NCBI GenBank assembly: GCA_951406725.2
Contig: OX597823.1
Coordinates: forward strand, 37,324,001 to 37,388,000
DNA length: 64,000 nt
Direction of reading: 5' to 3'
Source: Octopus vulgaris
Lineage: Eukaryota
In this document: one piece after another, positions 3,520 through 63,354 of the stretch
How positions within the stretch are numbered: the first letter of the stretch is position 1
Layout: the number at the start of each line of letters is the position of its first letter
Made by a program: the position numbers and the translations under genes
Notes under the pieces: model-generated
What the model was told of the DNA's origin: nothing
The model's input: the letters and a program-made list of their open reading frames with translations, nothing else
The model's database searches: none

Positions 3520-3570
<51 letters not shown>

Positions 3571-3616
3571 AAACAAGTAAAAAATAGAAAATGCTAAAAT
3601 AATTTTATAGTGAACA

Positions 3617-3660
3617 TTTCAGTACCGGTTTCGGTCATTTTGAGACCTTTTCAACTGTAA
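3617..3660 (-). ncRNA. Minimal type I hammerhead-like ribozyme (variant core), left-arm copy
   Basis: Exact reverse complement of 7425-7468. Confidence 0.6.
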
Positions 3661-3989
3661 CGATTAAATAATTAAATTTAGAAAAATTAGAAGAAAAGTT
3701 TTTTTAAAAGAATATTTCTATAGTAGTGTTCAGATTTAAGTGGCATTCTGCCTTTCTCTGACTCCCTTGTTTGCACTTGTGTGTTCGAGGTAGTTGTGAG
3801 TTCTTGGTAGGGTAGTAGAGGGAAGGCTGGTGAGGAAAGGGGGTGGGAGAATCTGGGAGTGCCCTGATGGTCGTATTTTGAATGGTCAGTGGCGGCTGGC
3901 AGTCTCAGTTCAATTCAGGATTGTTTATAGAATTAGCGTAGGTGTTATACTAAAAAACATTAGTGACAAACTTAAGGGGTAGGGGGTGG

Positions 3990-4262
3990 AGAAGAAGAAG
4001 AAGAAGAAGAAGAAGAAGAAGAAGAAGAAGAAGGAGAAGGAGAAGATGATGGTGATGGTGGTGATGATTATGACGACGATGATGATGATAACGATGATGA
4101 TGAAGAAGAAGAAGAAGAAGAAGAAGAAGAAGAAGAAGAAGAAGAAGAAGAAGAAGAAGAAGAAGAAGAAGGAGGAGAAGGAGAAGATGGTGGTGATGAT
4201 GGTGGTGATGATGATGACGCCGATGATGATGATAACGATGATGATGAAGAAGAAGAAGAAGA
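3990..4262. repeat. Compound (GAA)n/(GAT)n/(GGT)n microsatellite inside the PLE 3' region, mirrored at 6815-7092
   Basis: Directly visible. The unit is internally duplicated and the (GAA)n length differs slightly between arms. Confidence 0.9.
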
Positions 4263-5545
4263 AAAAACAGAGAAGGGAGAATATGAATGGGTGTAAATAT
4301 AGCTATGAAGGGGCTGATTAGTAATGGATTCTATGGAGTGTAGTATTTGTGTGTGTATATATATATTTTTCTTTTATTCTAAAGTTGAGGTATATTAATT
4401 GTTTGTCGTAGACCCGTTAAGAAGTGGCTTGTATTTTGTAATAAAGAGATTTTCTTTACTTATTCTTTGTCTCGAGGTTGTATCGTCCCTAAATTGGTAG
4501 AGGGGGAAAATTCTGAAGTTTGTGTTTTTTTGTTGGCGCAAGTATCTATGTGTTGGCTAAAAGCTATTTTTCTGTTTTGGGGAATTTTTATCTGGGATCT
4601 GTGCAGGGCCATTCGTTTACGCAAACCATTTTTTGTTTGGCCTATGTACTGCTCTTGACACCCGGAGCAGGTTAGTGAGTATATTAGGTTCTCCGAAGCA
4701 CATGTGAAGTTGCTTTTCACTGTAAACCGTTGTCCCTGTTTGAAGGAGAACTCAGAACCCTCGATTAGATAGTCGCATATCCCGCAATTGGGTCTTCCAC
4801 ATTTTTTTACTGTCGGCTTCTGTGTTGAAGAGTGAATTCGGGCTTGTGTAAGGAGACTTTTCATGGATCTAGGCTGTCTTTTGCTTTTTATGATCGTGTA
4901 TGTTTGGAGGATTGTGTTCATTCTGTGGTCTTTTTTTAGGAGGGGTATGTTGTGGAGGATGGTGTCGAAGGCTTCGTTATTGAGAGGGTTGTGTGTGGAG
5001 ATGTATGGTAAGGCTTTTGGTTGTAAGTTTTTCTTTGATTTGGGATGTCTCAGTTCCTTGATGTTAAGTTGAAGGGCACGTTGAATGCACTTGTCAATAA
5101 GTGAAGGTGGATAGTTCCTGGTGATTAGGGTATCTTTTAGTTCTTGTAGTCGTGTGTCTCTGGTGTTTGCGTTAGAGACTATAGTGCATATCCTTTTTGC
5201 TAGATTGAAGGGGATATTCATCCTGGTGTGTCTGGGGTGGCATGAATTGAATGGAAGATATTGCTTAGAGTCTGTAGGCTTATAGTATATGTCTGTTTCT
5301 ATTATATTATTAGCTTTCTTAATGAGGATATCGAGGAAGGGGAGTTGTTGTTGGCTATATTCCATCGTGAATTGGATGTTTACGTCCAGTCCGTTTAAAA
5401 TTTTCTGGAATTCTATGAGTTTTTCTATATTTTTATGCCAAAGGATGAAACAGTCATCTAGATATCTCTTCCAGTTGTTTTCTATGTAGATGGAGAAAGG
5501 GCTGCCATATCTTTCTAGAACCTTACGATACAGACTGATCTCTAG

Positions 5546-7518
5546 GTATCGTAAGGTTCTAGAAAGATATGGCAGCCCTTTCTCCATCTACATAGAAAAC
5601 AACTGGAAGAGATATCTAGATGACTGTTTCATCCTTTGGCATAAAAATATAGAAAAACTCATAGAATTCCAGAAAATTTTAAACGGACTGGACGTAAACA
5701 TCCAATTCACGATGGAATATAGCCAACAACAACTCCCCTTCCTCGATATCCTCATTAAGAAAGCTAATAATATAATAGAAACAGACATATACTATAAGCC
5801 TACAGACTCTAAGCAATATCTTCCATTCAATTCATGCCACCCCAGACACACCAGGATGAATATCCCCTTCAATCTAGCAAAAAGGATATGCACTATAGTC
5901 TCTAACGCAAACACCAGAGACACACGACTACAAGAACTAAAAGATACCCTAATCACCAGGAACTATCCACCTTCACTTATTGACAAGTGCATTCAACGTG
6001 CCCTTCAACTTAACATCAAGGAACTGAGACATCCCAAATCAAAGAAAACTTACAACCAAAAGCCTTACCATACATCTCCACACACAACCCTCTCAATAAC
6101 GAAGCCTTCGACACCATCCTCCACAACATACCCCTCTAAAAAAAGACCACAGAATGAACACAATCCTCCAAACATACACGATCATAAAAAGCAAAAGACA
6201 GCCTAGATCCATGAAAAGTCTCCTTACACAAGCCCGAATTCACTCTTCAACACAGAAGCCGACAGTAAAAAAATGTGGAAGACCCAATTGCAGGATATGC
6301 GACTATCTAATCGAGGGTTCTGAGTTCTCCTTCAAACAGGGACAACGGTTTACAGTGAAAAGCAACTTCACATGTGCTTCGGAGAACCTAATATACTCAC
6401 TAACCTGCTCCGGGTGTCAAGAGCAGTACATAGGCCAAACAAAAAATGGTTTGCGTAAACGAATGGCCCTGCACAGATCCCAGATAAAAATTCCCCAAAA
6501 CAGAAAAATAGCTTTTAGCCAACACATAGATACTTGCGCCAACAAAAAAACACCAAACTTCAGAATTTTCCCCCTCTACCAATTTAGGGACGATACAACC
6601 TCGAGACAAAGAATAAGTAAAGAAAATCTCTTTATTACAAAATACAAGCCACTTCTTAACGGGTCTACGACAAACAATTAATATACCTCAACTTTAGAAT
6701 AAAAGAAAAATATATATATACACACACAAATACTACACTCCATAGAATCCATTACTAATCAGCCCCTTCATAGCTATATTTACACCCATTCATATTCTCC
6801 CTTCTCTGTTTTTTCTTCTTCTTCTTCTTCATCATCATCGTTATCATCATCATCGGCGTCATCATCATCACCACCATCATCACCACCATCTTCTCCTTCT
6901 CCTCCTTCTTCTTCTTCTTCTTCTTCTTCTTCTTCTTCTTCTTCTTCTTCTTCTTCTTCTTCTTCTTCTTCTTCTTCTTCTTCATCATCATCGTTATCAT
7001 CATCATCGTCGTCATAATCATCACCACCATCACCATCATCTTCTCCTTCTCCTTCTTCTTCTTCTTCTTCTTCTTCTTCTTCTTCTTCTTCTTTCTCCAC
7101 CCCTACCCCTTAAGTTTGTCACTAATGTTTTTTAGTATAACACCTACGCTAATTCTATAAACAATCCTGAATTGAACTGAGACTGCCAGCCGCCACTGAC
7201 CATTCAAAATACGACCATCAGGGCACTCCCAGATTCTCCCACCCCCTTTCCTCACCAGCCTTCCCTCTACTACCCTACCAAGAACTCACAACTACCTCGA
7301 ACACACAAGTGCAAACAAGGGAGTCAGAGAAAGGCAGAATGCCACTTAAATCTGAACACTACTATAGAAATATTCTTTTAAAAAAACTTTTCTTCTAATT
7401 TTTCTAAATTTAATTATTTAATCGTTACAGTTGAAAAGGTCTCAAAATGACCGAAACCGGTACTGAAATGTTCACTATAAAATTATTTTAGCATTTTCTA
7501 TTTTTTACTTGTTTTTTC
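5546..7518 (+). mobile_element. Penelope-like element, inverted near-identical copy; right arm of palindrome
   Basis: ORFs 5490-6206 and 6154-6681 encode the same RT/EN peptide ending ENLFITKYKPLLN. The sequence is the reverse complement of 3567-5531. Confidence 0.95.
7425..7468 (+). ncRNA. Minimal type I hammerhead-like ribozyme (variant core) in PLE 3' repeat
   Basis: cag-UUGAAAA-GGUC(ucaaaau)GACC-GAAA-CCGG-UA-cug: stem I cag/ctg, 4-bp stem II, palindromic ACCGGU stem III, GUA site. Core differs from CUGANGA at positions 3 and 8. Confidence 0.6.
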
Positions 7519-7552
7519 ATATATATCAACTCGTGTGTTCCTTTTCACCCTT

Positions 7553-13549: not shown

Positions 13550-13933
13550 AAGTAGCTTGCTTACCAGCCACATGGTTCCGGGTTCAGTCCCACTGCGTGG
13601 CATCTTGGGCAAGTGCCTTCTACTATAGCCTCGGGCCGACCAAAGCCTTGTGAATGGATTTGGTAGACGGAAACTGAAAGGAGCCCGTCGTATATATGTA
13701 TATATATGTGTATGTGTATGTTTGTGTGTCTGTGTTTGTCCCTCCTAGCATTGCTTGACAACTAATGCTGGTATGTTTATGTCTCCGTAACTTAGCGTTT
13801 CGGCAAAAGAGAACGATAGAATAAGTACTAGGCTTACAAAGAATAAGTCTCGGGGTCAATTTGGTCGACTAAAGGCGGTGCTCCAGCATGGCCGCAGTCA
13901 AATGACTGAAACAAGTAAATGAGTAAAAGAGTA
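13550..13933 (+). mobile_element. tRNA-derived SINE family A with internal microsatellite
   Basis: B-box-like ggttcagtcc, 'ttgggcaagtg' core, central (TA)/(TG) tract, 3' 'gcggtgctccagcatggccgcagtcaaatgactgaaac'. Several copies in the window. Confidence 0.9.
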
Positions 13934-15037
13934 TATTGATTTTTGTTGCAGAGAGAGTTTTATTTGATAAATTTATTACTTTGGGTTTTTCACTCAGGTT
14001 TTGTTCCAACGTGTGTCCCTGTTTCTTTCCACTCGGTCTAAAAAATGTTTATTGTAATTTGGTTGGTAGAAGTTATTAGTATTATTATTGTTGTTAATTA
14101 TATCAGTTTTATTATTGTTATTATTTATTATATTGGCATTGCTGGGAGGTTGGTGTTGCTGTCTGGGTGGAATAAATTGTTGGAGTGCTTAATTATGTTT
14201 AGGATGTTGAGGAGTTGGTTGTGCTGTCTGGGTAAATATGGTAAGAATCCGTAGGTTGAGCTTCTTCGTTGAGGAGTGGAGGAAATCCTTTGAACGTTTC
14301 TAGTTACTAGGAAGAAAAAATTACTTCTAACCCTAGGTTGGTTTCTTTTTGTATTTCTTATTAGTGAGTTGTCCCTATTACTAGACTAAGAATGGTTTAC
14401 TTCCAGGTGAGAAGTCAGTTTTGTGTGTCTGTGTCCTTTTAGATGTTTATAGTTTGACCTAGGTGGACATGTATTTATTTCTGTAGATGTACTTGTTCCA
14501 GGATTTTTCAGGAATGGGGTTATCTGAGATTTAGTCTCTTTTAAATTGGGTTTTGTAACTAAGGAAAAAATTAACAATGTTTTCCCATCGGCGCAGGGAA
14601 TTTATTTTCTCCGACTCTCAGCTATCTTTCCATAGTTTTATAATACTTTCCAAAAGTTGTTCATCAGCATGTTTAGTGAGTTTGGTGAGCATTTCTTCAT
14701 CGATCGTTTAATATTTTTGTTCGTTGTTCGATACTCTAAATTTAAGTAACTCAATCTCTATCTTCATTTTCTCTAGTGCTAATTTCTCCCTAAGCTTTCT
14801 TTGTTGTTTGGGTTCTTCTGGGATAGGTTTGTTTTTGTGCGGCAGAATTAATGGTGTTTAATTAATCCAGTTTTCAGATAGTTCTGTCTTATTACTATTT
14901 TTTATCATGTTCCAAAAATATATTTAAAATATATTAAAACGATGTAAAGTGTGTGCATTTTCCTTCTTTAATTTCTTTTATATATATTACAACTCAGCAC
15001 GTGGGGATAATCGAAATTCCTCCCTTTCTGTTATATA

Positions 15038-15097: not shown

Positions 15098-17300
15098 TAT
15101 ATAGGAGAATTTGTTTTTGAAAATGCACCTGAATTTTTAAAATTTGTAATTATTTTTAAATAAATTTATTTACATACATACCAAACTAGTTTCAAAATTT
15201 TTTTTTTATCAATGGTATAAACGTATAAGATTTCAAATATTTAAAATTGCGAAGTAGAAAACATGTTTAAATGTTCACAAAATTCAATTATGTCAAAAAT
15301 GATAGGCGAAGGATATAAAAAATATGCATCACCAAAAGTTCGGACATACTGAGTTAAGAGAGAGAAAAATAAGAAAATATGAGAGTAAAGAGATGGTTTT
15401 GCTACAGTTTCTGTCATCTTGCGTGTGATTCTGTTTTCCGTCGCGTACTGGGATTTTTGCTTGTAACGGTTTGTTTGGAATCAGTGTATTTACAATTTTT
15501 TTCCGTGAACGGATCTGATTTTTGATTCATTATAGTTCTGATATCTAATTCTTTCTAGTGGTCAAGTTTAGCATTCTGCCTGGTTGACTTCCCTGTGGAG
15601 ATAGTCATTGAACGTTCCAGCTGGTTGATTCTCTTAAAGGGTTTATTTGTTTTGTTTTGTTTTTTCCTGAGGGTTCGGTGCTGATCGGAGGCAAAATTTC
15701 ATTGGTCTAGAGATGGGTGACGTCAGCAACTGGTGTTTGTATTGTGCTATTGTATGGTGATTTGGAGTTGCGGTTTCGAAACATGAGTGGAAAGTTTTTG
15801 AATTATGTCTGTTGTATCTGGCTATCGTTTTTTTTTTTTTTAGAAATTTTGTTTTTTCTTCATTTTAGTGTTTTTCCCTCTTCCTAAAGGATATTTAGCT
15901 GTGGTTTACATTTTTATTGAGTATGCTTTCCTTATTCAATCAGAATTAGGCTGAAGTGTTTCCAGTGCATTGATAGAGAGGGAAGATTTGGTATTTCGGG
16001 ATTATGTTTGCAGGGTATTGGTCTAGGTGTTTGCTTACGGGAATTTTCCTCGTCATAGGGTCCTGGATTTTTTGCCTGTGTACTGTCAGTCTGTCCCTCA
16101 AGGTCAAACACCCACCACATTTCAGGACATAGATTAAGTTCTTCGATGCACAGGTGAAGTGATTGTTTTATGGTAAAAGTTTGACCTGATTTAAATTTAT
16201 ATGTTGAGCCCTCCAAGGTAGATGCAAGTCCCGCAATTTCAGCGGTTGCATGGCGTTGTATTTTTGATGGGTAATTTGGTGCTGATGAGTAGCCTTTTTA
16301 GGGATTGTGGTTCTTTTTTCATTCGCAGGTCATTCATAAGGAGGGGTATGTTTTGGTGGATGATGTATGCTTCCATGTTTATCGGACTGTGTGTTCATGC
16401 GTAAGATAAAGTTTTAAGTGTGTCATGGGATTTTCTTGTTTGCCGTAACTCTTGGATGTCTATCGTTTTTGCAAATTCTATTCCGTTTTTGATTTAACTA
16501 GCCAGATATTTTCTTGCTAGTAATATGTTTTTAAGTTCTTGAAGTTGTTTATCTCAGGTTTCGGGATTTGATGCAATCGCGCAAATTCTTCTTGCTAAGT
16601 TGAACGGTATATTTATTTTAGTGCGTTTTGAGCGGCAGGAAAAGAATAAAAGATATTATTATGAGTCCGTTGGTTTGAAGAAAATGTCAGTTTCAATTTC
16701 AGTATCAAAGATGTCCAGGAAGGGTAACTATTTGTGGCTGTATTCCATTGTAAGTTGGATACTGTCGTTAATACTGTTGATTATGTTTTTAAATTTTAAG
16801 TGTTGCTCAAGGCTATGCGACCACAGAATGAAACAATCATCCAGGTAGCGTTTCCATTTGGTAAGTATTTTTAGAAGTTGTCTCCAAATATCAGTCTAGC
16901 ATGTTCGTATATTTGGACTTCCAAGTATACCATGACAAAGTTAGCAAACGAAGGAGCTCCCCTTCACAGTGCCCGATTTTTGTCGATAGGTGTCCTCATT
17001 GAAGTTGAAGAACTTCTGTAGGATGAACTTTATTCCTTCAGTGATGAATCCTTTTCTGATTCCGTCAGAAATGTCGTCTAGGATTTTTCCATCCGGAATT
17101 GTATGGCTTTTATTCTGTATTCATGAAGAATCGAGGTGTAGGGATTTATTACCTCGAATGAAACCAGAAGGTAATCATTGCTAGTTTTGTTCAGAAGATG
17201 GTTTAAAAAGTCCAGATCATCCCTTATAAAGTTCGATATATGTTGGAAAATAGGTTTTAGGAGGACGTCAATAAAGTTACTTTAAAAGATGGAGTATCCC
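15090..17300 (-). mobile_element. Decayed Penelope-like element (RT plus GIY-YIG)
   Basis: Reverse strand ~16860-16640 reads KWKRYLDDCFILWSHS...IQLTMEYSHK*LPFLDIF. ~16250-16140 reads NCGTCIY..GSTYKFKSGQTFTIKQ. Many stops and frameshifts. Confidence 0.85.
15179..15217 (-). ncRNA. Degenerate minimal hammerhead in PLE 3' repeat
   Basis: uacca-UUGAUAA-aaaa..uuuu-GAAA-CUAG-UU-uggua: 5-bp stem I and palindromic ACUAGU stem III. Confidence 0.45.
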
Positions 17301-20830: not shown

Positions 20831-20907
20831 TACATACGCATATGCATATACGTATACATATGTGACTATATATATATATATATAATATAAATAAATATAT
20901 ATATATA

Positions 20908-21070
20908 GTCGCAGGAGTGGCTGTGTGGTAAGTAGCTTGCTAACCAACCACATGGTTCCGGGTTCAGTCCCACTGCGTGGCATCTTGGGCAAGTGTCTTC
21001 TGCTATAGCCCCGGGCCGACCAATGCCTTGTAAGTGGATTCGGTAGACAGAAACTGAAAGAAGCCCATCG

Positions 21071-21111
<41 letters not shown>

Positions 21112-21314
21112 CTGTGTTTGTCCCCCTAGCATTGCTTGACAACCGATGCTGGTGTGTTTACGTCCCCGTTACTTAGCGGTTCGGCAAAAAAAGAGACCGA
21201 TAGAATAAGTACTGGGCTTTCAAAGAATAAGTCCCGGGGTTGATTTGCTCGACTAAAGGCGGTGCTCCAGCATGGCCGCAGTCAAATGACTGAAACAAGT
21301 AAAAGAGTAAAAAG
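20908..21314 (+). mobile_element. SINE family A, full length
   Basis: Starts gtcgcaggagtggctgtgtggtaag (A box) and ends gaaacaagtaaaagag. Internal (TA)(TG) tract. Confidence 0.9.
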
Positions 21315-21371
21315 ATTAAAAAAATACATATAATATAAATAATTATATATATAATATAAATAATTATATAT

Positions 21372-21519
21372 ATAAAGCGACGAAAATATTTTGACAAATT
21401 AGATTTAAATGTTGAAATGAATCTAACGGTTTTTTGTGTGTTTCTTAAATGGCTTATAAACACCTTCCACGCTGCAATTGTTTTCGTTCCAGAACACGAT
21501 CTACGCAAGTACATCTCCG

Positions 21520-21522
<3 letters not shown>
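21372..21522 (+). mobile_element. Short non-autonomous element 3' part (same family as 48315-48597), in (TA)n
   Basis: Clear similarity to 48430-48597, ending acatctccgtaa. Confidence 0.8.
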
Positions 21523-21594
<72 letters not shown>

Positions 21595-21944
21595 AGATAA
21601 GAAAATGGAGAAATACATCTAAATCAAATATCAATTACCAGATAATACTCAATCACATACTTTATTAAACCACCACATAAGAGACTGTAGGGTTAAATAT
21701 AAAAAACAGAACAAATCAGTGTACATAAAGGAATGTACATAAAAAAGTGTACATAAAAGAGTAATGTTGTATAATAATTAGAATATATATAAAAAAGAAT
21801 ATAAATACAAGTAAATATAAATATAAGTATAAATTAGATCTTACAGCTGTTTCGGCCATGTCGATAATTATGTCTCATTTTATACGTTATCCCATAGAGG
21901 GTTGCATTTACAACCCCTATATCAATTTGTATATATATATATAT

Positions 21945-22376
<432 letters not shown>

Positions 22377-24369: not shown

Positions 24370-27300
24370 TAAACTTAGATAAACTTAGATATGTTTCGAC
24401 CAAAGATTGGTCCAGGCCATGTCTAACTTAATAGCACCGCCTGATAGGATTATTTGAATCCTGTTTAAGTCAAGTTTTGTTTATGGACCATTCAAGTAGT
24501 AAGTTTTTGTTGCAATGTACATGTATGCTGTGATCTTGAATTGGGCAGAGGACGTATGGCCCGTGGTCCCAGTCTTGGATGAACCTTGAAGCTAATGTTC
24601 AGGTCGTTTGGACAAAGTTGGCGGTACATTCTGCACATCGTACAAATGATGTACCGCTCACGGCGACGCTGGAGAGAGTAGAGTTTCAAGGCTTTAAGGT
24701 GATCCCAATAATCGTGAGCAGCCATGCCTTCAATTCGTTTAGTGAGTGCCCTCTGAGGTGATTCAATCCTCGAGATGTTTTGTCTTATATGGGGAGACCA
24801 CAGTGGGCAGCAGTATTCGAGGTGTGGCCGTACAAAGGAGGAGAAAAGTGGTATGATGATACCTTGTTCTCTGGACCGGAAAGTTCTTAAGATCCGGGAA
24901 CTCATCCTACGAGCTATATCGACCTTCTTGTTGATGTGTGCACTCCAACTGAGATCGTCATCAACAATTACACCCAGGTCTCTGATATTGTTAGAGGCTG
25001 TGAGCGGTTCCCCTGAAGGAAGAGAGTATGACTGTTTTAGTGAGGAATTTCTTCCAAAATGCATCAGCTCAAATTTTCCCTCGTTCAGTTGCATTTTGTT
25101 TCTGTCTGCCCATTGACTCACAGCATATAGATCAGACTGGAGTTCGGTCTGCTTCTTCATTGACGATTTGCTGGAGCTTAGTGTCATCAGCAAATATTTT
25201 CACTTTGCAGTAATGTACGACACTGGAAAGGTCGTTTATGTAAATTATGAAGAGTAGCGGACCAAAGACAGTCCCCTGGGGGACACCGCTGGTGATTTTT
25301 ACTGGGCTTGAGTGGACTCTATCAACTACAACATATTCGCCAGGAAATACTTAATCCAGTGTAGAACTTTTCCACGGATTCCAACATTTGCCAATTTTGA
25401 GAGTAGGATATTATGGTCTACCCTGTCGAACGCTTTACTGAAGTCAAGATATATGACATCAGAGTTCGAACCTGTTCCCAAGGCTTTCAGTACATCTTCA
25501 ATGTGGTGTAAGAGCTGTGTTTGACAGTCCCTCCCACAGCGAAAGCCACGCTGATTTGTATTTAGGAGTTTGTGGGTCTCCAGGAAGTCAGCTATCCTTG
25601 ATCTTAACACTCTTTCAAACACTTTAATGATGTGGGAGGTGAGTGAGATTGGGCGATAGTTGAGTGCGAGGGATCAGTTTCCCTGTTTGAAAACCGGGAT
25701 GACTGACTGGGATAGAAACTGTTTCGGTATATAACCTGCGTCTAACGAATTTCTCCAGAGGTTGGTCAGAGGGACTGCAAGTTGGTGTCTACATTCCTCC
25801 AGGAGACTAGCGGGGAATCTATCAGGGCCTACAGCAGAGTACTATTTGACCTCATTTATTGCTGCTATGATGTCAGTGGCAGTGAAGGTTATGTCTGAGA
25901 TTTTATGTTGGGAGTCAACTTCGTTCGCTTCTCTTACGTCAATATCAGTGGGAACACTAAAGACAGAGCAGTATTGTTTCTGCAGTATTTCTGCCATTTC
26001 TTTAGTATCGTGTTGGGGAATGTCATCAATCAATGGCCCAATGGGTGAGACAGTGGTTCTATGCTTATTTGCATAAGAATAGAACACTTTTGGGTTCTGT
26101 TTGATGTTTTTGATTACCCACTGTTCCTCCACAGCTCTTTGATTTTCAATGGAGGTTTTCATGTCGGTCTGCAGATGAAGTTTTTCCAGCTCTAGCCTTT
26201 TCATTGTTGTTGAATGTGGATGTTGTATGTGGGAATATTTTAATTGGTTGATTTTTTTGTTGAGTCTTTTGATGCGCCTGATGAGTGTTTTTTTTTCTTT
26301 TTAGGGAACCGGTTTCTGTTTGTGTTAGTAGATTTCGTGAGAGCGTGTTTAGAGCATGTACAAGTGACAATGTTTTCAAAGTGCTGCCATGCGGTCTCAA
26401 TATGGGTGGAATTGAGAGTAAAAGACCAGTCGATGTAAGACAGATCCTTTCTGATTGCTCCCCAGTTCGCTTTGTGGAAGTTTATGTTGTCAAATGAGTG
26501 CCATGGAGTGGGATTGGCTGGTTTGGTTTTTATATGTCGGGAATTAAAATTGCAGAGTACCATGTCGTGGTCTGAGAGGAGAGTTTTTTCAACTGAAATA
26601 CTGTGAACGAAGCTAGAGTGATTGGTCAATACCAGATCCAAGATCGTTTTATTCTGTCTCGTTGGTTCGAGCACTAGCTGAGTCAGGAAGTATTCATCCA
26701 TTAGATTAAAGAGCAGTTCTGCTGCTGCTCTATCTGATGTAGAGCATTTGCCTAACTTCAGAGTATTTGTGGGCCAGTTCACATGAGGGAGGTTAAAATC
26801 ACCCATCACGAGTATGTTTCCGGAGTTGAACTTCCGAAGGAAGGACTTGACTTTGCTAAGGCACTCTTCAAAGTACTTTAGAGGTGCTTGGGGAGGCCTG
26901 TAAAGACCAACAATGATTATGTCCTTGGCCTTGCTGAATAGTGATACAGATTCACAATAGCCATTGGAAAATATGTCCTTGGCATCAAGTGAAAAGGAGT
27001 CATGGATAAAGATGGCTATAAAGATCCCTTATTTCAGTCTGTGCGATCCGCACGAACGATGGTGAAATCTTTTATTTTCACCTCGGCGTCCATATGGGTG
27101 TTGTTCAGGTGAGTCTCGGTAAGGATAAAGAAAGGGTAGCAATGTGCCGTTTCGGCAAGCCAACTCTCTATGTATGGGATCTTCCATTTTTGGGCAATAA
27201 TTGATGGGTTGATGCAACGCACATTTAACAGGAATGTCGAGGTAAGAGAAGTTTGATGTTTGCATTGTTCTAAGTTATGTTTTATGTTGTTCAGTGGTAA

Positions 27301-27660
27301 CAATGTGGGTAGTTCTTGTATGAAGCTGTGTGTGTATGATTTTCTTGTTGGTAGTGGGTGTGTGGTCCTTGTGATTTGCATAGGTGGTTGCTGATAGCTC
27401 GTTGGATCTCCTAACTTAGGTCGGCCTTCATATTTTCTAGGTAAGTCAGTAAAAAGAGTTACCTCTTTGGTTTGCCACTTGGTCAGAGGATACATATTTC
27501 ATGTTTATGTTATTTGGTGTTATGGTTTTTTCATGGTTCTGTCTTCGTTGTTTGATTGTAGGAGGGGAAACGTGGTTGTATTTTGTTTTTGTTGTTGTCG
27601 TAGATCTCCTCTGTTGCTATTTATATTTATTTTGCGATCGTTTTGTTCAGTGTCAACGGA
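24370..27660 (-). mobile_element. CR1-group LINE, near-complete decayed ORF2 (APE endonuclease plus RT)
   Basis: EN motifs LTETHL, MGDFNLP, LDLVLT, SDH. RT motifs YLDFSKAFDRV, GVPQGTVFGPLLF, IFADDTK. C-terminal VRPHLEYC...LYSLQRRRERY. Tandem 10-mer (tctaagttta) 3' tail. Confidence 0.92.
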
Positions 27661-30300: not shown

Positions 30301-31923
30301 AGGACAGAACAGAGAACACAAGTAGCAAGCATTTTCTTCTGTTTAACTAAGTTATTCAGTTTGATGCAGTTATGTCGTTTATGTTATAAATTTGTTTTAA
30401 TTCGGAAGTTTTGTCATATCTCTATTTATTTTATATTATTTATTTATTGTATTATAATTTTTAAAGTTTTTAAAAATTTTTAATAAGCAGTTTATTCGGT
30501 CAATTTATTTTCTGTAATTAAACATATAATCAAATTGGTTTTGATCTATGCTTGCCCTTTTCCCTTGTTCATGATTCAAGGACGCTGTTTATATACGCTT
30601 CCTTTTTTCTTTTCTTTTTTTTGCGTTGTTTCATATTTGGAGTATATTATAGAATGAGAAATAGTATATCTATTAGTCTACGTTCATTAATTAATCTATA
30701 TGTTTGAAGTTCTAAGTTTGTTGTTCTTTGTGTTCTTATTATCAGTGGTTCAGCAGATTTTGTTCAACGCATTTAATTCGCTAGTTATGTATAGAACTAT
30801 AGTTTTTGGGATCGCAATGTCCTTTGTAGAAGAAATTTCTTTGCTTTATAGATAGTTTTGTTTTGTTTCTGTCAATTTCTATCTTTTGTAGCTATAAGTT
30901 AATATTATTTTCTTTGTATTCGATGTTGTTATTTATAATAATAAGCAGGTGTTATCCTAATGAGTATATTTCGCTGTTTCACTCCTTCTGTTTATCTGTT
31001 GGTTGCCAGGCAGCGTTTATGTTTTAATGCTAATGGCACCACTGGGTTGAATGGCACTGCCCAAGTGTCGAAACTGTAGTGATACTGTTTCTTTAAAATG
31101 TTGTTCTTGCACATTATCTAAGAGGAATCGATGTTATCAGGTCATCATCAGGAAATGTTATGACCGATTTAAGATGACAACCATAACTTCTCAATACTCA
31201 GCTCTCTCCACAAAACTGTTATACCTTTCCTGTATTTCAGATAAGATATAGATATTAGGTGGAACACACCTATAAAGATCGAGAAGGTTGGCTTAATTTT
31301 CTTTTCTTTACTCATTTTTAACCGATTTGATTTTCTTTTTAGTGTTTAAGTATTTTGCGAATGTGTCTATAAATGAGTGACTGAAATAGCCGTTAGTTGT
31401 TGAACGGAAGAGTTGTCCTGTTACAATTAATATCCACTTCAATGCCAACTATAGCAATAACTATATGAGCACACCTAGTTTTATTATTAATGGTTCAACC
31501 TTCTGCCACTATTAACTACACCCATGAAGTAGTTTTTTGTTTTTAGGTTTGAACTGAAAATTTCGATAACACTATCGTCACATCTGGAGCGAACTAATCA
31601 TGTAGACATCAGACATTTTTTAAAACGCTATCATTTAAGGTGGTATGCAATAAAGTTGCGAATAGATATCGGTAAAACAAAGGAGTCTTTATTGTCTACA
31701 CCAGTAAGTTAATTCCGTTATTATTTCACAAATAAATATGTTATGAGACTTTACTCCTTCGCTTATGTTATACTTCTTTATACTCTCTCTCTCTCTCTCT
31801 CCCTCTCTTTCACTCTCTCTCTCTCACTCCTTCTATCTCTCTCCTTTCTCTCTTTCTCACTTCTCTCTCTCTTCTTTCTTTCTCTTCACTCTCTATGTAT
31901 GTATATATATATATATATATATT

Positions 31924-32129
31924 CCTTTTTTGATTTGTTTCAGTGATGTGACTGCGGACATACTGGAGCACTGCCTTTAGTCGAACAAATCGACCCCAGG
32001 ACTATTCTTTGAAAGCCTAGTATTTATTCTGTCGTTCTCTTTTGCCGAACCGCTATGTCACGGCGATGTAAACACACATTCATCGGTTGTCAAGCGATGG
32101 TGGGGGGACAAACACAGACACACAAACAT

Positions 32130-32130
<1 letters not shown>
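31924..32130 (-). mobile_element. SINE family A, 3' half
   Basis: Matches the 3' half of 20908-21314 and is broken at the internal microsatellite. Confidence 0.85.
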
Positions 32131-32178
<48 letters not shown>

Positions 32179-32259
32179 TGTATATGTATGTATGCATATA
32201 CATATATATGTGTGTGTGTGTGTGTGTGCATGACATAACAAATAGGTGTCGTGACAAAT

Positions 32260-41086: not shown

Positions 41087-41145
41087 GGAATTTTGTATCT
41101 TTGTTAGAAACCAGGAGCTGGTTTCTAACAAAGATACAAAATTCC
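41087..41145. repeat. Perfect 28-bp-arm hairpin with 3-nt loop
   Basis: ggaattttgtatctttgttagaaaccag-gag-ctggtttctaacaaagatacaaaattcc. Confidence 0.9.
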
Positions 41146-48054: not shown

Positions 48055-48699
48055 TATATATAATTAAGAGAAATAACCTCTATTAAATAATTCAGTTAAT
48101 AGTGAAAGATATCTATGTTAAATGAAATAGAAAAAAATTTAAATATATAATAAATATTATTTTAAAATTAAATAAATATTAAATTGACTACGCGCGTTTC
48201 GTGAACTAATTTTAATAGCATCGATTTTATTATTATCGATTTAAGGATATAGTCGCGAAACGCGCGTAGTCGATTTAATGTTTATTTAATTTAGTGATTT
48301 TTAGAATAATATTTGCAGCGTGGAAGGTGTTTGTAAGCCATTTAAGAAACACACAAAAGCCGTTCGATTCACTTCAACATTTAAGTTTAATTTGTCAAAA
48401 TATTTTCGTCGCTTTAAGACCGCGACCTGTTAAAGCGACGAAAATATTTTGACAAATTAAACTTAAACGTTGAAGTGAATCGTACGGCTTTTGTGTGTTT
48501 CTTAAATGGCTTACAAACACCTTCCACGCTGCAATTGTTTTCGTTTCAGCACACGATCTCAGATCAAATCACTTGCTATGCAAGTACATCTCCGTAAAGA
48601 ATAATATTTATTATAATATATTTAAATTTTTCTATATGATTTAATATAGATAATATCTTTCACTATCAATTGAATTACTTAATAGAGGTTATTTCTCTT

Positions 48700-48710
<11 letters not shown>
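48055..48710. mobile_element. Older fold-back element in (TA)n (host of nested insertion)
   Basis: 48060-48208 is the diverged reverse complement of 48250-48314 plus 48598-48705. Both arms carry GAAACGCGCGTA next to the turn. Confidence 0.8.
48315..48597. mobile_element. Young 283-bp fold-back element with 12-bp TSD
   Basis: Arms 48315-48417 and 48430-48532, 12-nt loop, flanked by direct repeat agaataatattt (48303-48314, 48598-48609). Confidence 0.9.
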
Positions 48711-49547: not shown

Positions 49548-49586
49548 CTCTTTCTGACGAAAGGCTACACTTGAAACGTAGAAAAG
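49548..49586 (+). ncRNA. Minimal type I hammerhead ribozyme
   Basis: cucuuu-CUGACGA-AAG(gcuaca)CUU-GAAA-CG-UA-gaaaag. Stem III is the palindrome ACGU, which can form only in a dimer. Confidence 0.6.
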
Positions 49587-51490: not shown

Positions 51491-52412
51491 ATATATAATG
51501 GTATTTTTTATATAAGCTTAAAGCTTATGGCGATCACCGTGCAATGTCTATAAAAAATAGTCTAATAAAGGGGCATATAATCCCTCGACAGAAAAAAGAA
51601 GGCATGCGGATGGGAAAGCCTTCTTTTTTTCTGTCGAAGGCTTATAGTTAATAAAGAGATAAATGAATTAGAAATAAATTACAAACCTTACAATCCTATG
51701 ACTCCACTATGCTCCATACGATTCTTAGAAGTTGTAGTCTATTCTTAGCTACAATAGCGACAACATATACTATTTTATATAGAGATTGTTAACATTATCA
51801 ATACTCAGAAACAGGCTAGAATCGAAGTGCTCAAATTGAGCTAAGTTCCAATTTATGATTTGAATGGAGGCAATGCGAACGGAAAACTAGAGGAACATGA
51901 CCTATTATTCAATAGAATATTCAGTGTATATGTGTACTTTCTTCGACATTAATAAATCAATATAAAGTTCGAAATAATATTAGTATTAAAAACATACAAA
52001 CATATAAACATATAAATATTAAATATTTAAAACCACGTAAATATTTAAAAATATATAGGCTTTTTCAAAATATATAAACGCATAAATAGATACATAAATA
52101 GATATAAACAAACGTCGATATGATATAAAATATAGTGAATTATAAATTCACACTATATGATATAAGATGTTTAAAGACTCGTATGTATTTAAAAATATTT
52201 AAAAAGCATTTATAAATATAAATAATTACGCAGGCAAAATAGAAAACATCAATATGATATAAGACATAGTGAATTATTAATTCACACGATAAGATACAGA
52301 GGAATAAAAATTTACAAGTTACAACACGGAGTCCAGTGGAAAGTTTGAAATTATAAAACATTAAAAGGACATACCAATATACGAAGATAATGTTCAATGG
52401 ATCCAAAAGTTT

Positions 52413-53129: not shown

Positions 53130-53234
53130 GTACCTGATGTGACACAAACTGCACAGATTTAGGCAACACTATTAGATGCACAAAACCCTACCCATCACAA
53201 ACAGTTGCAGGATGGGCCGAAACGATCGTCGTAC
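53130..53234 (+). ncRNA. Type I hammerhead-like ribozyme with ~80-nt stem II domain
   Basis: guac-CUGAUGU-g(..cugca..cccauc..ugcag-gauggg..)cc-GAAA-CGAUCG-UC-guac: stem I gtac/gtac, palindromic ACGAUCGU, GUC site, A9U change. Confidence 0.65.
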
Positions 53235-53908: not shown

Positions 53909-54202
53909 ATGCATGTATGTATGAATGTATGTATGTATGTATGTATGTATGCTTGTATGTACATACACATACATATACATACATATACATACATGTATAT
54001 GCACGTACCCACATATACACATACACACACATACACTTGCACACACGCACGCGCAGACGCACATACACCTACAAACATATACAGTAAGATGCACACGCGC
54101 GTGTATACACTTCGAGGACTTGACCCACCATTAAACAGAAATGTATAAGTAAAGTTATGTACTTTAGTGGTTATACACGTATATATAGGAATATTTATTA
54201 TA

Positions 54203-54359
54203 GGCGTAGGAATGGCTGTGTGGTAAGAAACTTGCTTCCCAACCACATGGTTCCGGGTTCAGTCCCACTGTGTGGCACCTTGGGCAAGTGTCATCTACTA
54301 TAGCCTCGGACCGAGGATTTGGCGGACAGAAACTGAAAGAAACCCGTTTGTATGTGTGT

Positions 54360-54434
<75 letters not shown>

Positions 54435-54604
54435 TGTCCCCGCACCATCGCTTGACAACCGGTGTCGGTGTATTTAAGTCCCCGTGACCTTAGCGGTTCG
54501 GCAAAAGAGAATAAGTATTAGACTTACGAAGAATAAGTCCTGGAGTCGATTTGTTCAACTAAAGGCGGTGCACCAGCATGGCCGCAATTAAATGACTGAA
54601 AAGA
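54203..54604 (+). mobile_element. SINE family A, full length
   Basis: Same head, core and tail. Internal (TG)n. Confidence 0.9.
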
Positions 54605-54639
54605 ATATGTAAATATATGACACACACGCACATCCCCAG

Positions 54640-55601: not shown

Positions 55602-55741
55602 GAAAATTGTCTAGAATAATCCTTAAGTTTATCCAGTGGTGTGAAAACTCCAAGAATTTTGATAAAATATTCTGGATGAATTAATAGACCGTGCGAATGT
55701 TTGATATATGTAAGTGTATATTTATGTATCTAATTACATAT

Positions 55742-56115
55742 TCTTTTATTCTTTTACTTGTTTCAGTCATTTGACTGCAGCCATGAAGGGTTTTAGTCGA
55801 AAAAATCGACCAAGGACTTATTTCTTAAGCCTAGTACTTAATCTATCTGCTCCTTTTACCGAACCGCTAAGTTACGGAGACGTAAGTACACCAACACCAG
55901 TTGTCAAGCGGTGATGGAGGGACAAACACACACACACATGTTAACATATATTCGGTGGGCTTCTCTCAGTTTCCGTCTACCAAATCCACTCACAAGCATT
56001 TGGTCGGCCCGAGGCTACAGAACAAAACACTTGTCCTAGGTGCCACGCAGTAAAACTGAACCCAGAACCATGTGGTTGGGAAGCAAGCTTCTTACCAAAC
56101 AGTCACGCCTGCACC

Positions 56116-56116
<1 letters not shown>
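55742..56116 (-). mobile_element. SINE family A, full length
   Basis: Reverse complement of the family consensus with a short internal tract. A further head fragment lies at ~56146-56212 (+). Confidence 0.88.
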
Positions 56117-56151
<35 letters not shown>

Positions 56152-62429: not shown

Positions 62430-62489
62430 TAGAAAGAGAGAGAGGGAGGGAGAGAGAGAGAAAGAGAGAGAGAGAGGCAATTACAAGGA

Positions 62490-62820
62490 AAAATAAATTA
62501 GATATATTAAATATAAGAGTTTTGGTATGAAATCCAAAATACTTATAAAGGTATAAATGCAAAACGAGAGGAAGCAAAGAGTGGAGACGTTCAGATTATG
62601 AATATTTCAGTATAAATATATAGATATTTATATCAATATATCCAACTTACACATAGTGCAAACGACAGAGAAAATTAAATATGAAAATATATACTTATAC
62701 TTAAATAGTCATCGTTTGGAAGTCTCCGCTTTTTGCTTTCTCTCGTTTTGCATTAATTCATATATGCATATTTTGGATTTCGTACCGAAACAGTTATATC
62801 TAATATATCTAATTTGTTTA
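62490..62820. repeat. Diverged fold-back (~130-bp arms, ~65-nt spacer)
   Basis: aaattagatatatt...gaaatccaaaata...aatgcaaaacgagag.aagcaaa.ag.ggagac on the left is mirrored at 62690-62820. Confidence 0.8.
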
Positions 62821-62945
62821 TCCGTATAATTGCTCCCATATCCGTTCAACTTGATCCCCTGTAAACACATCGAAGTCTAAGTTTGAATGATATGCGCACT
62901 ACCAAGTGTCTTCTATACTGAGAATCCCTGGATCTCATCTGTTGA

Positions 62946-62979
<34 letters not shown>

Positions 62980-63128
62980 ATAATAAAAGGGTAAAATTAA
63001 TTAATTGTTAATTAATTTTACCAAGTAGTGTTCAGTATGTAAAAAGACCATTTACGGTATATTAAACATTACGTTATATAATTAGGGCGGTAAAGTAAAT
63101 TATTTTACTGAACCCTAATTATATAACG

Positions 63129-63188
<60 letters not shown>

Positions 63189-63312
63189 AAAGGGTAAAAT
63201 TAATAATTGTTAATTAATATACCAAGTAGTGTTCAGTATGTAAAAAGACCATTTACGGTATATTAAAATTAGTTATATAATTAGGGCGGTAAGTGAACCT
63301 AATTATATAACG

Positions 63313-63316
<4 letters not shown>
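62980..63316. repeat. Direct duplication of a ~140-bp hairpin-ended unit separated by (TA)n
   Basis: 62980-63131 and 63185-63316 share taataaaagggtaaaatt...ccaagtagtgttcagtatgtaaaaagaccatttacgg...ctaattatataacgtaat. Confidence 0.85.

Positions 63317-63354
<38 letters not shown>

Follow-up and report, generated by a model that had tools for sequence, protein, structure and literature searches.

How did one fold-back come to lie inside another in the Octopus vulgaris genome, and did the hammerhead ribozyme pieces near their centres decide where each one turned? We examined these questions in a stretch of 64,000 nucleotides, referred to here as the window, which is AT-rich, animal-type and full of microsatellites. 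An earlier note, made from the letters alone, had read the locus as reverse transcription stalling at the ribozyme structure and snapping back. Besides the window itself, we used four of 24 listed public runs, which were compared with positions 48200-48435. These comprised three contig sets (5132, 362 and 7352 records) and the raw-read run X22, which placed 1 of 12.9 million reads and was uninformative.

Architecture of the two fold-backs

The inner unit (48315-48597) measures 283 bp and lies between identical 12-nt direct repeats at 48303-48314 and 48598-48609 (Table 1). With base composition considered, the probability of such a flanking repeat arising by chance is about 3 × 10−6 in fixed register and 1.3 × 10−3 with ±10 nt of slack. 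In 19 contigs of public run X3, the sequence passes from 48314 straight into outer-family sequence matching 48610 onward. This uninserted site supports the 12-bp repeat as a target duplication, whose length is that of a single case, the inner unit (n = 1). The inner arms (48315-48417 and 48430-48532) are identical at 101 of 103 positions and are separated by a 12-nt spacer, 48418-48429. The unit is asymmetric, its right arm running about 63 bases further at the 3' side, to 48597. A solo copy at 21373-21522 starts within 1-2 nt of the point at which the inner arm is cut, its edge being blurred by a TA-rich flank. These results bear out the earlier description of a 283-bp element with a 12-bp duplication, of a copy at 21372 truncated at the same point, and of a genuine insertion instead of an assembly error.

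With the inner insert left out, the outer palindrome extends over approximately 48063-48703, and its arms align with 130 matches, 10 mismatches and 18 gap columns. As the inner unit sits in one arm of this palindrome, the proposed nesting of one fold-back in another was confirmed. Given the lower identity between its arms, the outer unit is probably older than the inner one. No one-sided 3' extension was evident in it. Its arms converge on GAAA-CGCGCG-UA, found at 48257-48268 (+) and 48200-48189 (-). The earlier note had placed this convergence on hammerhead halves within stem II. The halves are there, but an upstream catalytic box is absent from 48200-48256, and the loose contig ends listed include none from upstream of the outer family, so the outer stem II remains putative. 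The outer centre at 48205-48252 is predicted to fold into a long, interrupted hairpin that closes immediately 5' of GAAA (−9.9 kcal/mol, z −0.99). This centre is present in other family contigs, with 35 and 42 counted at 48245. Going by contigs and depth, outer-family homology seems to end near 48203-48208.

Artefacts of assembly or of library fold-back are a very improbable source of the palindromes. None of the listed contigs covers the entire compared stretch, and the raw reads could not help, yet the arms differ (at 2 of 103 positions in the inner unit, and by 10 mismatches plus gaps in the outer), the inner unit lies within a target duplication, and opposite-strand joints of a related kind were seen repeatedly across independent runs.

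Table 1. Coordinates of the nested fold-backs, their hammerhead pieces and related insertions in the window.
Feature	Positions	Strand	Basis
Outer left arm: hammerhead 3' half and AT-rich 3' end, abuts (TA)n; RNA sense on minus	48063..48204	-	
Outer left hammerhead 3' half: C11.1, GAAA, palindrome CGCGCG, UA	48189..48201	-	
Outer centre: family sequence continuous with right arm; possible helix II	48205..48252	+	Contigs and folding
Inner portion of outer right arm, with hammerhead 3' half (48256-48268)	48253..48314	+	
Target-site duplication, left copy	48303..48314	.	12-bp direct repeat and uninserted site in X3
Inner left arm, without the ~63-nt 3' extension; loop donor	48315..48417	-	Arm alignment
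Truncated minimal type I hammerhead motif	48389..48431	-	Positions, helix II folding, family contigs for the 5' part
Inner fold-back loop, 12 nt; 2-nt microhomology at 48430-48431	48418..48429	-	Arm alignment and contigs
Inner right arm, cut in loop II	48430..48534	+	Arm alignment
One-sided 3' extension, tail-like, ~63 nt; last base is that of the copy at 21522	48535..48597	+	Alignment
Target-site duplication, right copy	48598..48609	.	12-bp direct repeat
Outer right arm, outer part, abuts (TA)n	48610..48703	+	
Solo inner-family copy, 5' end in loop II, TA-rich flanks	21373..21522	+	138 matches, 11 mismatches, 19 gap columns
Young head-to-head fold-back of a Penelope-like element (PLE), with RT C-terminal part and GIY-YIG	3567..7550	.	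Arms 1959/1960 identical

The hammerhead motif of the inner family

We next located the hammerhead positions of the inner unit, all on the minus strand. They run from A6 (48431) through C8 (48429), A9 (48428), an extra G (48427) and G10.1 (48426) to C11.1 (48408), followed by GAAA (48407-48404), AUAU, U16.1 (48399), U17 (48398) and the 3' strand of helix I (48397-48391). Helix II, GUCGC/GCGAC, has 5 bp and a folding energy of −7.9 kcal/mol with a z-score of only −1.6, and GAAA, AUAU and UU follow it; the z-scores of the ribozyme pieces (−1.6 to 0.2) are not significant. Contigs of three public runs (240, 14 and 319) reach past 48431 and share a consensus there, with an agreement of 0.63-0.66 over 30 letters. 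They supply G3-U4-G5 and a 7-bp helix I, the latter recognised by inspection. In RNA sense the completed core box reads G3-U4-G5-A6-A7-C8-A9, followed by the extra G and a helix II closed by G10.1-C11.1. Among the loose contig ends listed, 9 of 18, from three runs and two organism labels, carry a complete helix I and core box.

Taking the loose-end consensus and the window together, the inner family has the NUGANNA core with a G3:C8 pair at positions 3 and 8, GAAA, a UH site in which H is U, the palindrome AUAU as helix III, helix I, and helix II with its G10.1-C11.1 closing pair. On these features the inner family carries a complete minimal type I hammerhead motif with a G3:C8 core, a predicted ribozyme. 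Its U17 would be a weak cleavage site. The longer inner arm had been described as stem II, GAAA and a palindromic stem III cut just inside the first core box, and the folded helix II, AUAU and the sequence added beyond 48431 agree with this. The upstream NUGANNA box, whose absence the earlier note had named as counting against its reading, is found in the family contigs. Contrary to the earlier claim, the inner turn does not lie within stem II: the arms stop at 48417, in loop II, and at 48429-48431, in the core box, and helix II is intact. Rfam covariance models returned no hammerhead among the 150 matches listed of 245. These did not include the complete motif at 7431 either, which shows the search to be insensitive.

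Minimal hammerheads of PLEs are marked by an extra base between positions 9 and 10.1, a G10.1-C11.1 pair and a palindromic helix III; they include a U3-A8 variant, and motif pairs occur 100-700 bp apart on opposite strands (PMC4209133). The inner family shares the extra base, the closing pair, the palindrome and the opposite-strand pairing with these metazoan type I motifs, but it has G3:C8 in place of C3:G8 or the reported U3:A8, it has U17, and both copies are cut inside the motif. In the accessible part of PMC3088659, U3-A8 is the only natural core variant reported. An engineered C3G/G8C pair partly restores cleavage, and cleavage is not needed for insertion (PMC11167929). We found no report of a natural G3-C8 hammerhead in the literature searched; Lunse et al. 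2017, a study of variant PLE hammerheads, may already list one, and the figures and supplements of PMC4209133 and PMC3088659 may bear on the question. A natural G3:C8 core would add to the hammerhead variants already known. The locus as a class is ordinary PLE debris, and its unusual detail is this core in a very abundant family, of which we found no description in the cephalopod literature searched.

Several other motifs in the window resemble hammerheads. The one at 15212 (-) has a U3:A8 core, a 7-bp helix I, a CTAG palindrome and a UU site, and lies about 0.7 kb from a minus-strand frame, 15932-16297, that by eye is PLE endonuclease-like. CUGA-N-GA boxes followed by GAAA occur at 49554 (+), 11466 (+), 63418 (-) and 17781 (-), and only that at 49554 passed a loose minimal-hammerhead scan. 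At 53218 (+), 21854 (-) and 50301 (-) we observed CGAAA, a six-base palindrome and UH with no core box visible upstream; these halves are possibly PLE ends cut inside the ribozyme.

Exact-pattern scans gave no match in metagenome contigs, viral contigs or prokaryote genomes. A gapped helix II pattern hit 81 metagenome loci, which we attribute to chance: none match the element beyond the pattern (best E-value 1.7), and their GC content is 0.46-0.76. The inner family also occurs, over 48313-48431, in run X11, guessed to be RNA, where the listed T>C and A>G differences outnumber those of the DNA runs. The excess may reflect editing of hairpin RNA or other copies.

Probable insertion of PLE 3' ends

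The 5'-truncated head-to-head architecture is already described for PLEs (PMC3846280, PMC4209133, PMC8557442). Inverted 5'-truncated copies lie beside the element with a 30-40 bp tail often at one end only and a bias towards microsatellites, and the way in which PLEs make these inverted repeats and tails is described as open (PMC8557442). Inverted pLTRs with 8-10 bp target-site duplications, junction palindromes and Penelope inside Penelope are described elsewhere, and self-priming on an antisense template is proposed (PMC3846280). The inner unit resembles these insertion units in being a head-to-head pair that contains an inverted 5'-truncated copy (its orientation set by the hammerhead motif), in its short loop, in a 3' extension at one end only, in an AT-rich or microsatellite target with a duplication (of variable length in PLEs), and in being nested in a PLE. 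It differs in its arms of only about 170 nt, in the lack of coding sequence, and in a tail of about 63 nt and a duplication of 12 bp, as against the 30-40 nt and 8-10 bp described.

No parent ORF with reverse transcriptase (RT) or endonuclease, such as the RT and GIY-YIG of a PLE, was linked to the inner or the outer family, though a different family in the window, at 3567-7550, has one. A 55-codon open frame in the inner right arm (48430-48597, +) stops exactly at the last base of the element. We rejected it as coding evidence, since a protein search gave no relative and such a frame appeared in 2126 of 20000 shuffles (~11%).

We consider it probable that the nested pair consists of two dead-end, 5'-truncated head-to-head insertions of PLE 3' ends, one inside the other. 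The insertion at 3567-7550 offers a coding comparator. It encodes an RT end and a GIY-YIG domain (Pfam E-value 5.6 × 10−5), and RT and GIY-YIG domains are found in many of its 164 longer relatives. In the left arm the ORF stays open over 375 codons, which makes a recent insertion probable. Each arm holds a complete U3:A8 hammerhead motif, at 7431 (+) and 3654 (-), and these two matches compare with none in 20 shuffles. The loop of 14 nt (5532-5545) immediately precedes the RT catalytic motif, some 1.9 kb away from the hammerhead, and it belongs to the left arm, which relatives match better in 5/5 comparisons. A tail of 30 nt is present on the right arm only. Thus, in both cases at hand (2/2), the inner unit and 3567-7550, the loop comes from the tail-less arm and the tail lies on the other.

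A fold-back, or snap-back, is likely at the centre of the palindromes, and here the earlier proposal of a reverse-transcription product snapping back is probably right. Two arms of about 2 kb that end 14 nt apart favour one strand folding back over independent stops. Snap-back alone could not, however, supply the roughly 63 extra bases of the right arm, as a copy is no longer than its template. The tail calls for a further priming step, from the opposite nick in the target and with a start lying more 3' on the RNA. We envisage that a PLE RT/GIY-YIG protein would cut both strands of AT-rich DNA 12 nt apart, and that one nick would prime a cDNA from an internal start site that stops early. The 3' end of this cDNA could then pair back through a few bases 12 nt upstream and be extended into an inverted copy. 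The other nick would prime a second cDNA from a far 3' start site, which would give the one-sided tail and anneal to the folded-back strand. The turn may fall wherever the RT stops, which in the inner unit is within the ribozyme, whose helices may offer self-priming sites.

This two-nick, two-start second priming fits the in vitro behaviour of a PLE protein that cuts and extends both strands and has two internal RNA start sites (PMC11167929). Two independently stopped cDNAs annealed through the same microhomology could possibly give the same product, and Arkhipova's antisense self-priming is another possible route. In L1 twin-priming inversions, two nicks prime two cDNAs that are joined by microhomology inside the target-site duplication, and the 3' end is not known to be duplicated. 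Here, unlike in L1, both arms carry the same sequence.

The inner family may alternatively be a non-autonomous hammerhead retroposon (a retrozyme, or a SINE-like derivative of a PLE) that depends on a PLE enzyme for copying in trans, and not the pLTR of a coding element. Such a parent would agree with the very high abundance of the family, whose summed depth is about 300-1500 times that of the outer family (a depth ratio, not a copy number), with its presence in the run guessed to be RNA, and with its lack of a protein match. Animal retrozymes have been reported as PLE derivatives, and non-LTR retrozymes share with the inner family a non-coding sequence, a type I hammerhead and a high copy number (10.64898/2026.07.22.740005). 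They are defined, however, by tandem units with complete ribozymes, whereas the 64-kb window holds an inverted pair and a solo copy and no tandem head-to-tail array or tandem units with complete hammerheads. One contig also carries about 500 bases upstream of 48431. We therefore regard a retroposon parent as somewhat unlikely; it would alter the parent element only and leaves the insertion mechanism unchanged.

Small, AT-rich and palindromic, the units also resemble MITEs, which would be palindromes amplified by a DNA transposase. The outer centre is common to other family contigs, and the outer ends, which border on (TA)n, are almost symmetric. Against this, the inner ends are not mutual inverted repeats, given the 63-nt overhang, so the unit has no fixed or symmetric termini; it has no fixed centre, it includes a ribozyme motif, the copy at 21373 has a single arm, and beyond the turn most contigs run into non-palindromic sequence. 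Outer-family depth in the first bin is 0.08-0.09 of the plateau, compared with 0.23 for a pure edge effect, and most outer copies thus appear without continuation into the left arm. That one or both units are MITEs is improbable, and the earlier claim of retrotransposition products that merely look like MITEs is supported by the asymmetric ends, the solo arm and the read-through contigs. In genomes of this kind, small palindromes risk being annotated wrongly as MITEs or microRNA hairpins; the inner centre scored 53 bits against MIR6297, under the cut-off of 114.

Turn points and the ribozyme

We then asked whether the hammerhead fold is a preferred site of RT stalling and snap-back, in which case the ribozyme would set the size of the palindrome. 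Within the window, all three inner-family 5' ends, two of them from one event, lie at 48416-48431, and outer homology appears to end at the foot of the hairpin that closes before GAAA. GAAA-palindrome halves without a visible core at 53218 and 21854 point the same way, the six-base-palindrome halves outside the outer unit numbering three in all (shuffle mean 0.72, maximum 3). Motif searches are blind, however, to copies cut 3' of GAAA, which biases the window tally. Summed contig depth at the ribozyme edge relative to the opposite edge was 0.54, 0.69 and 0.80, although the drop may reflect CpG decay in helix II together with contig edge effects.

Other inner-family inversions, seen as opposite-strand joints in the contigs, have one side at 48345, 48348, 48382, 48384 or 48393. 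We did not treat joints with a side at 48428 or 48431 as a hot spot, since the compared stretch ceases to match the family there and extra letters are possible. The joint 48393/48431 (X1 and X11) may represent a turn through helix I, but four of the five have one side 3' of the ribozyme. Hundreds of contigs also continue beyond the inner turn, and in the 4-kb PLE the turn falls within the RT gene, about 1.9 kb off its hammerhead.

The claim that the ribozyme structure causes the turn was therefore not upheld: the 4-kb PLE turns in its RT, 240, 319 and 14 contigs read on, and the joints are scattered over 48345-48393. No paper linking turn points with the ribozyme was found in the literature searched. 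As a weaker claim, a bias of truncation toward the ribozyme is no more than suggested by the data. That the RT stalls preferentially at the fold seems doubtful to us, and the hot-spot claim is likewise tentative, with each supporting item small, biased or CpG-confounded. The combined reading, of an abundant PLE-derived family with a natural G3:C8 hammerhead whose helices are RT stop or self-priming hot spots, we hold as a possibility with less than even weight. If this combined reading were true, the hammerhead would shape insertions as a fold, whether or not it is catalytic, and the order of the two priming steps could be read from thousands of copies, the loop always coming from the tail-less arm. 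Because the family is abundant and its arms are short, counts of its turn points and of the sides that give the loop and bear the tail would be a direct test of fold-back and second priming.

Other palindromes and repeats were observed in the window. An older one at 62477-62833 has 75% identity between its arms and a GAAA motif about 130 nt outward of its centre; if it is a PLE fold-back, its turn is far upstream of that motif. Short hairpins, perfect or nearly so and with neither a CGAAA nor a TGAAA motif, occur at 41087-41145, 51576-51646 and 63058-63143, the last within a tandem duplication (62947-63354) that has (TA)n tracts on both sides. A repeat of about 400 bp with an internal microsatellite, presumably SINE-like, is present in at least six copies, at 13550-13934, 20895-21352, 21918-22252, 31896-32209, 54181-54607 and 55704-56128. 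Finally, broken frames that by eye are LINE-like RT and endonuclease lie at 24492-27498 (-).
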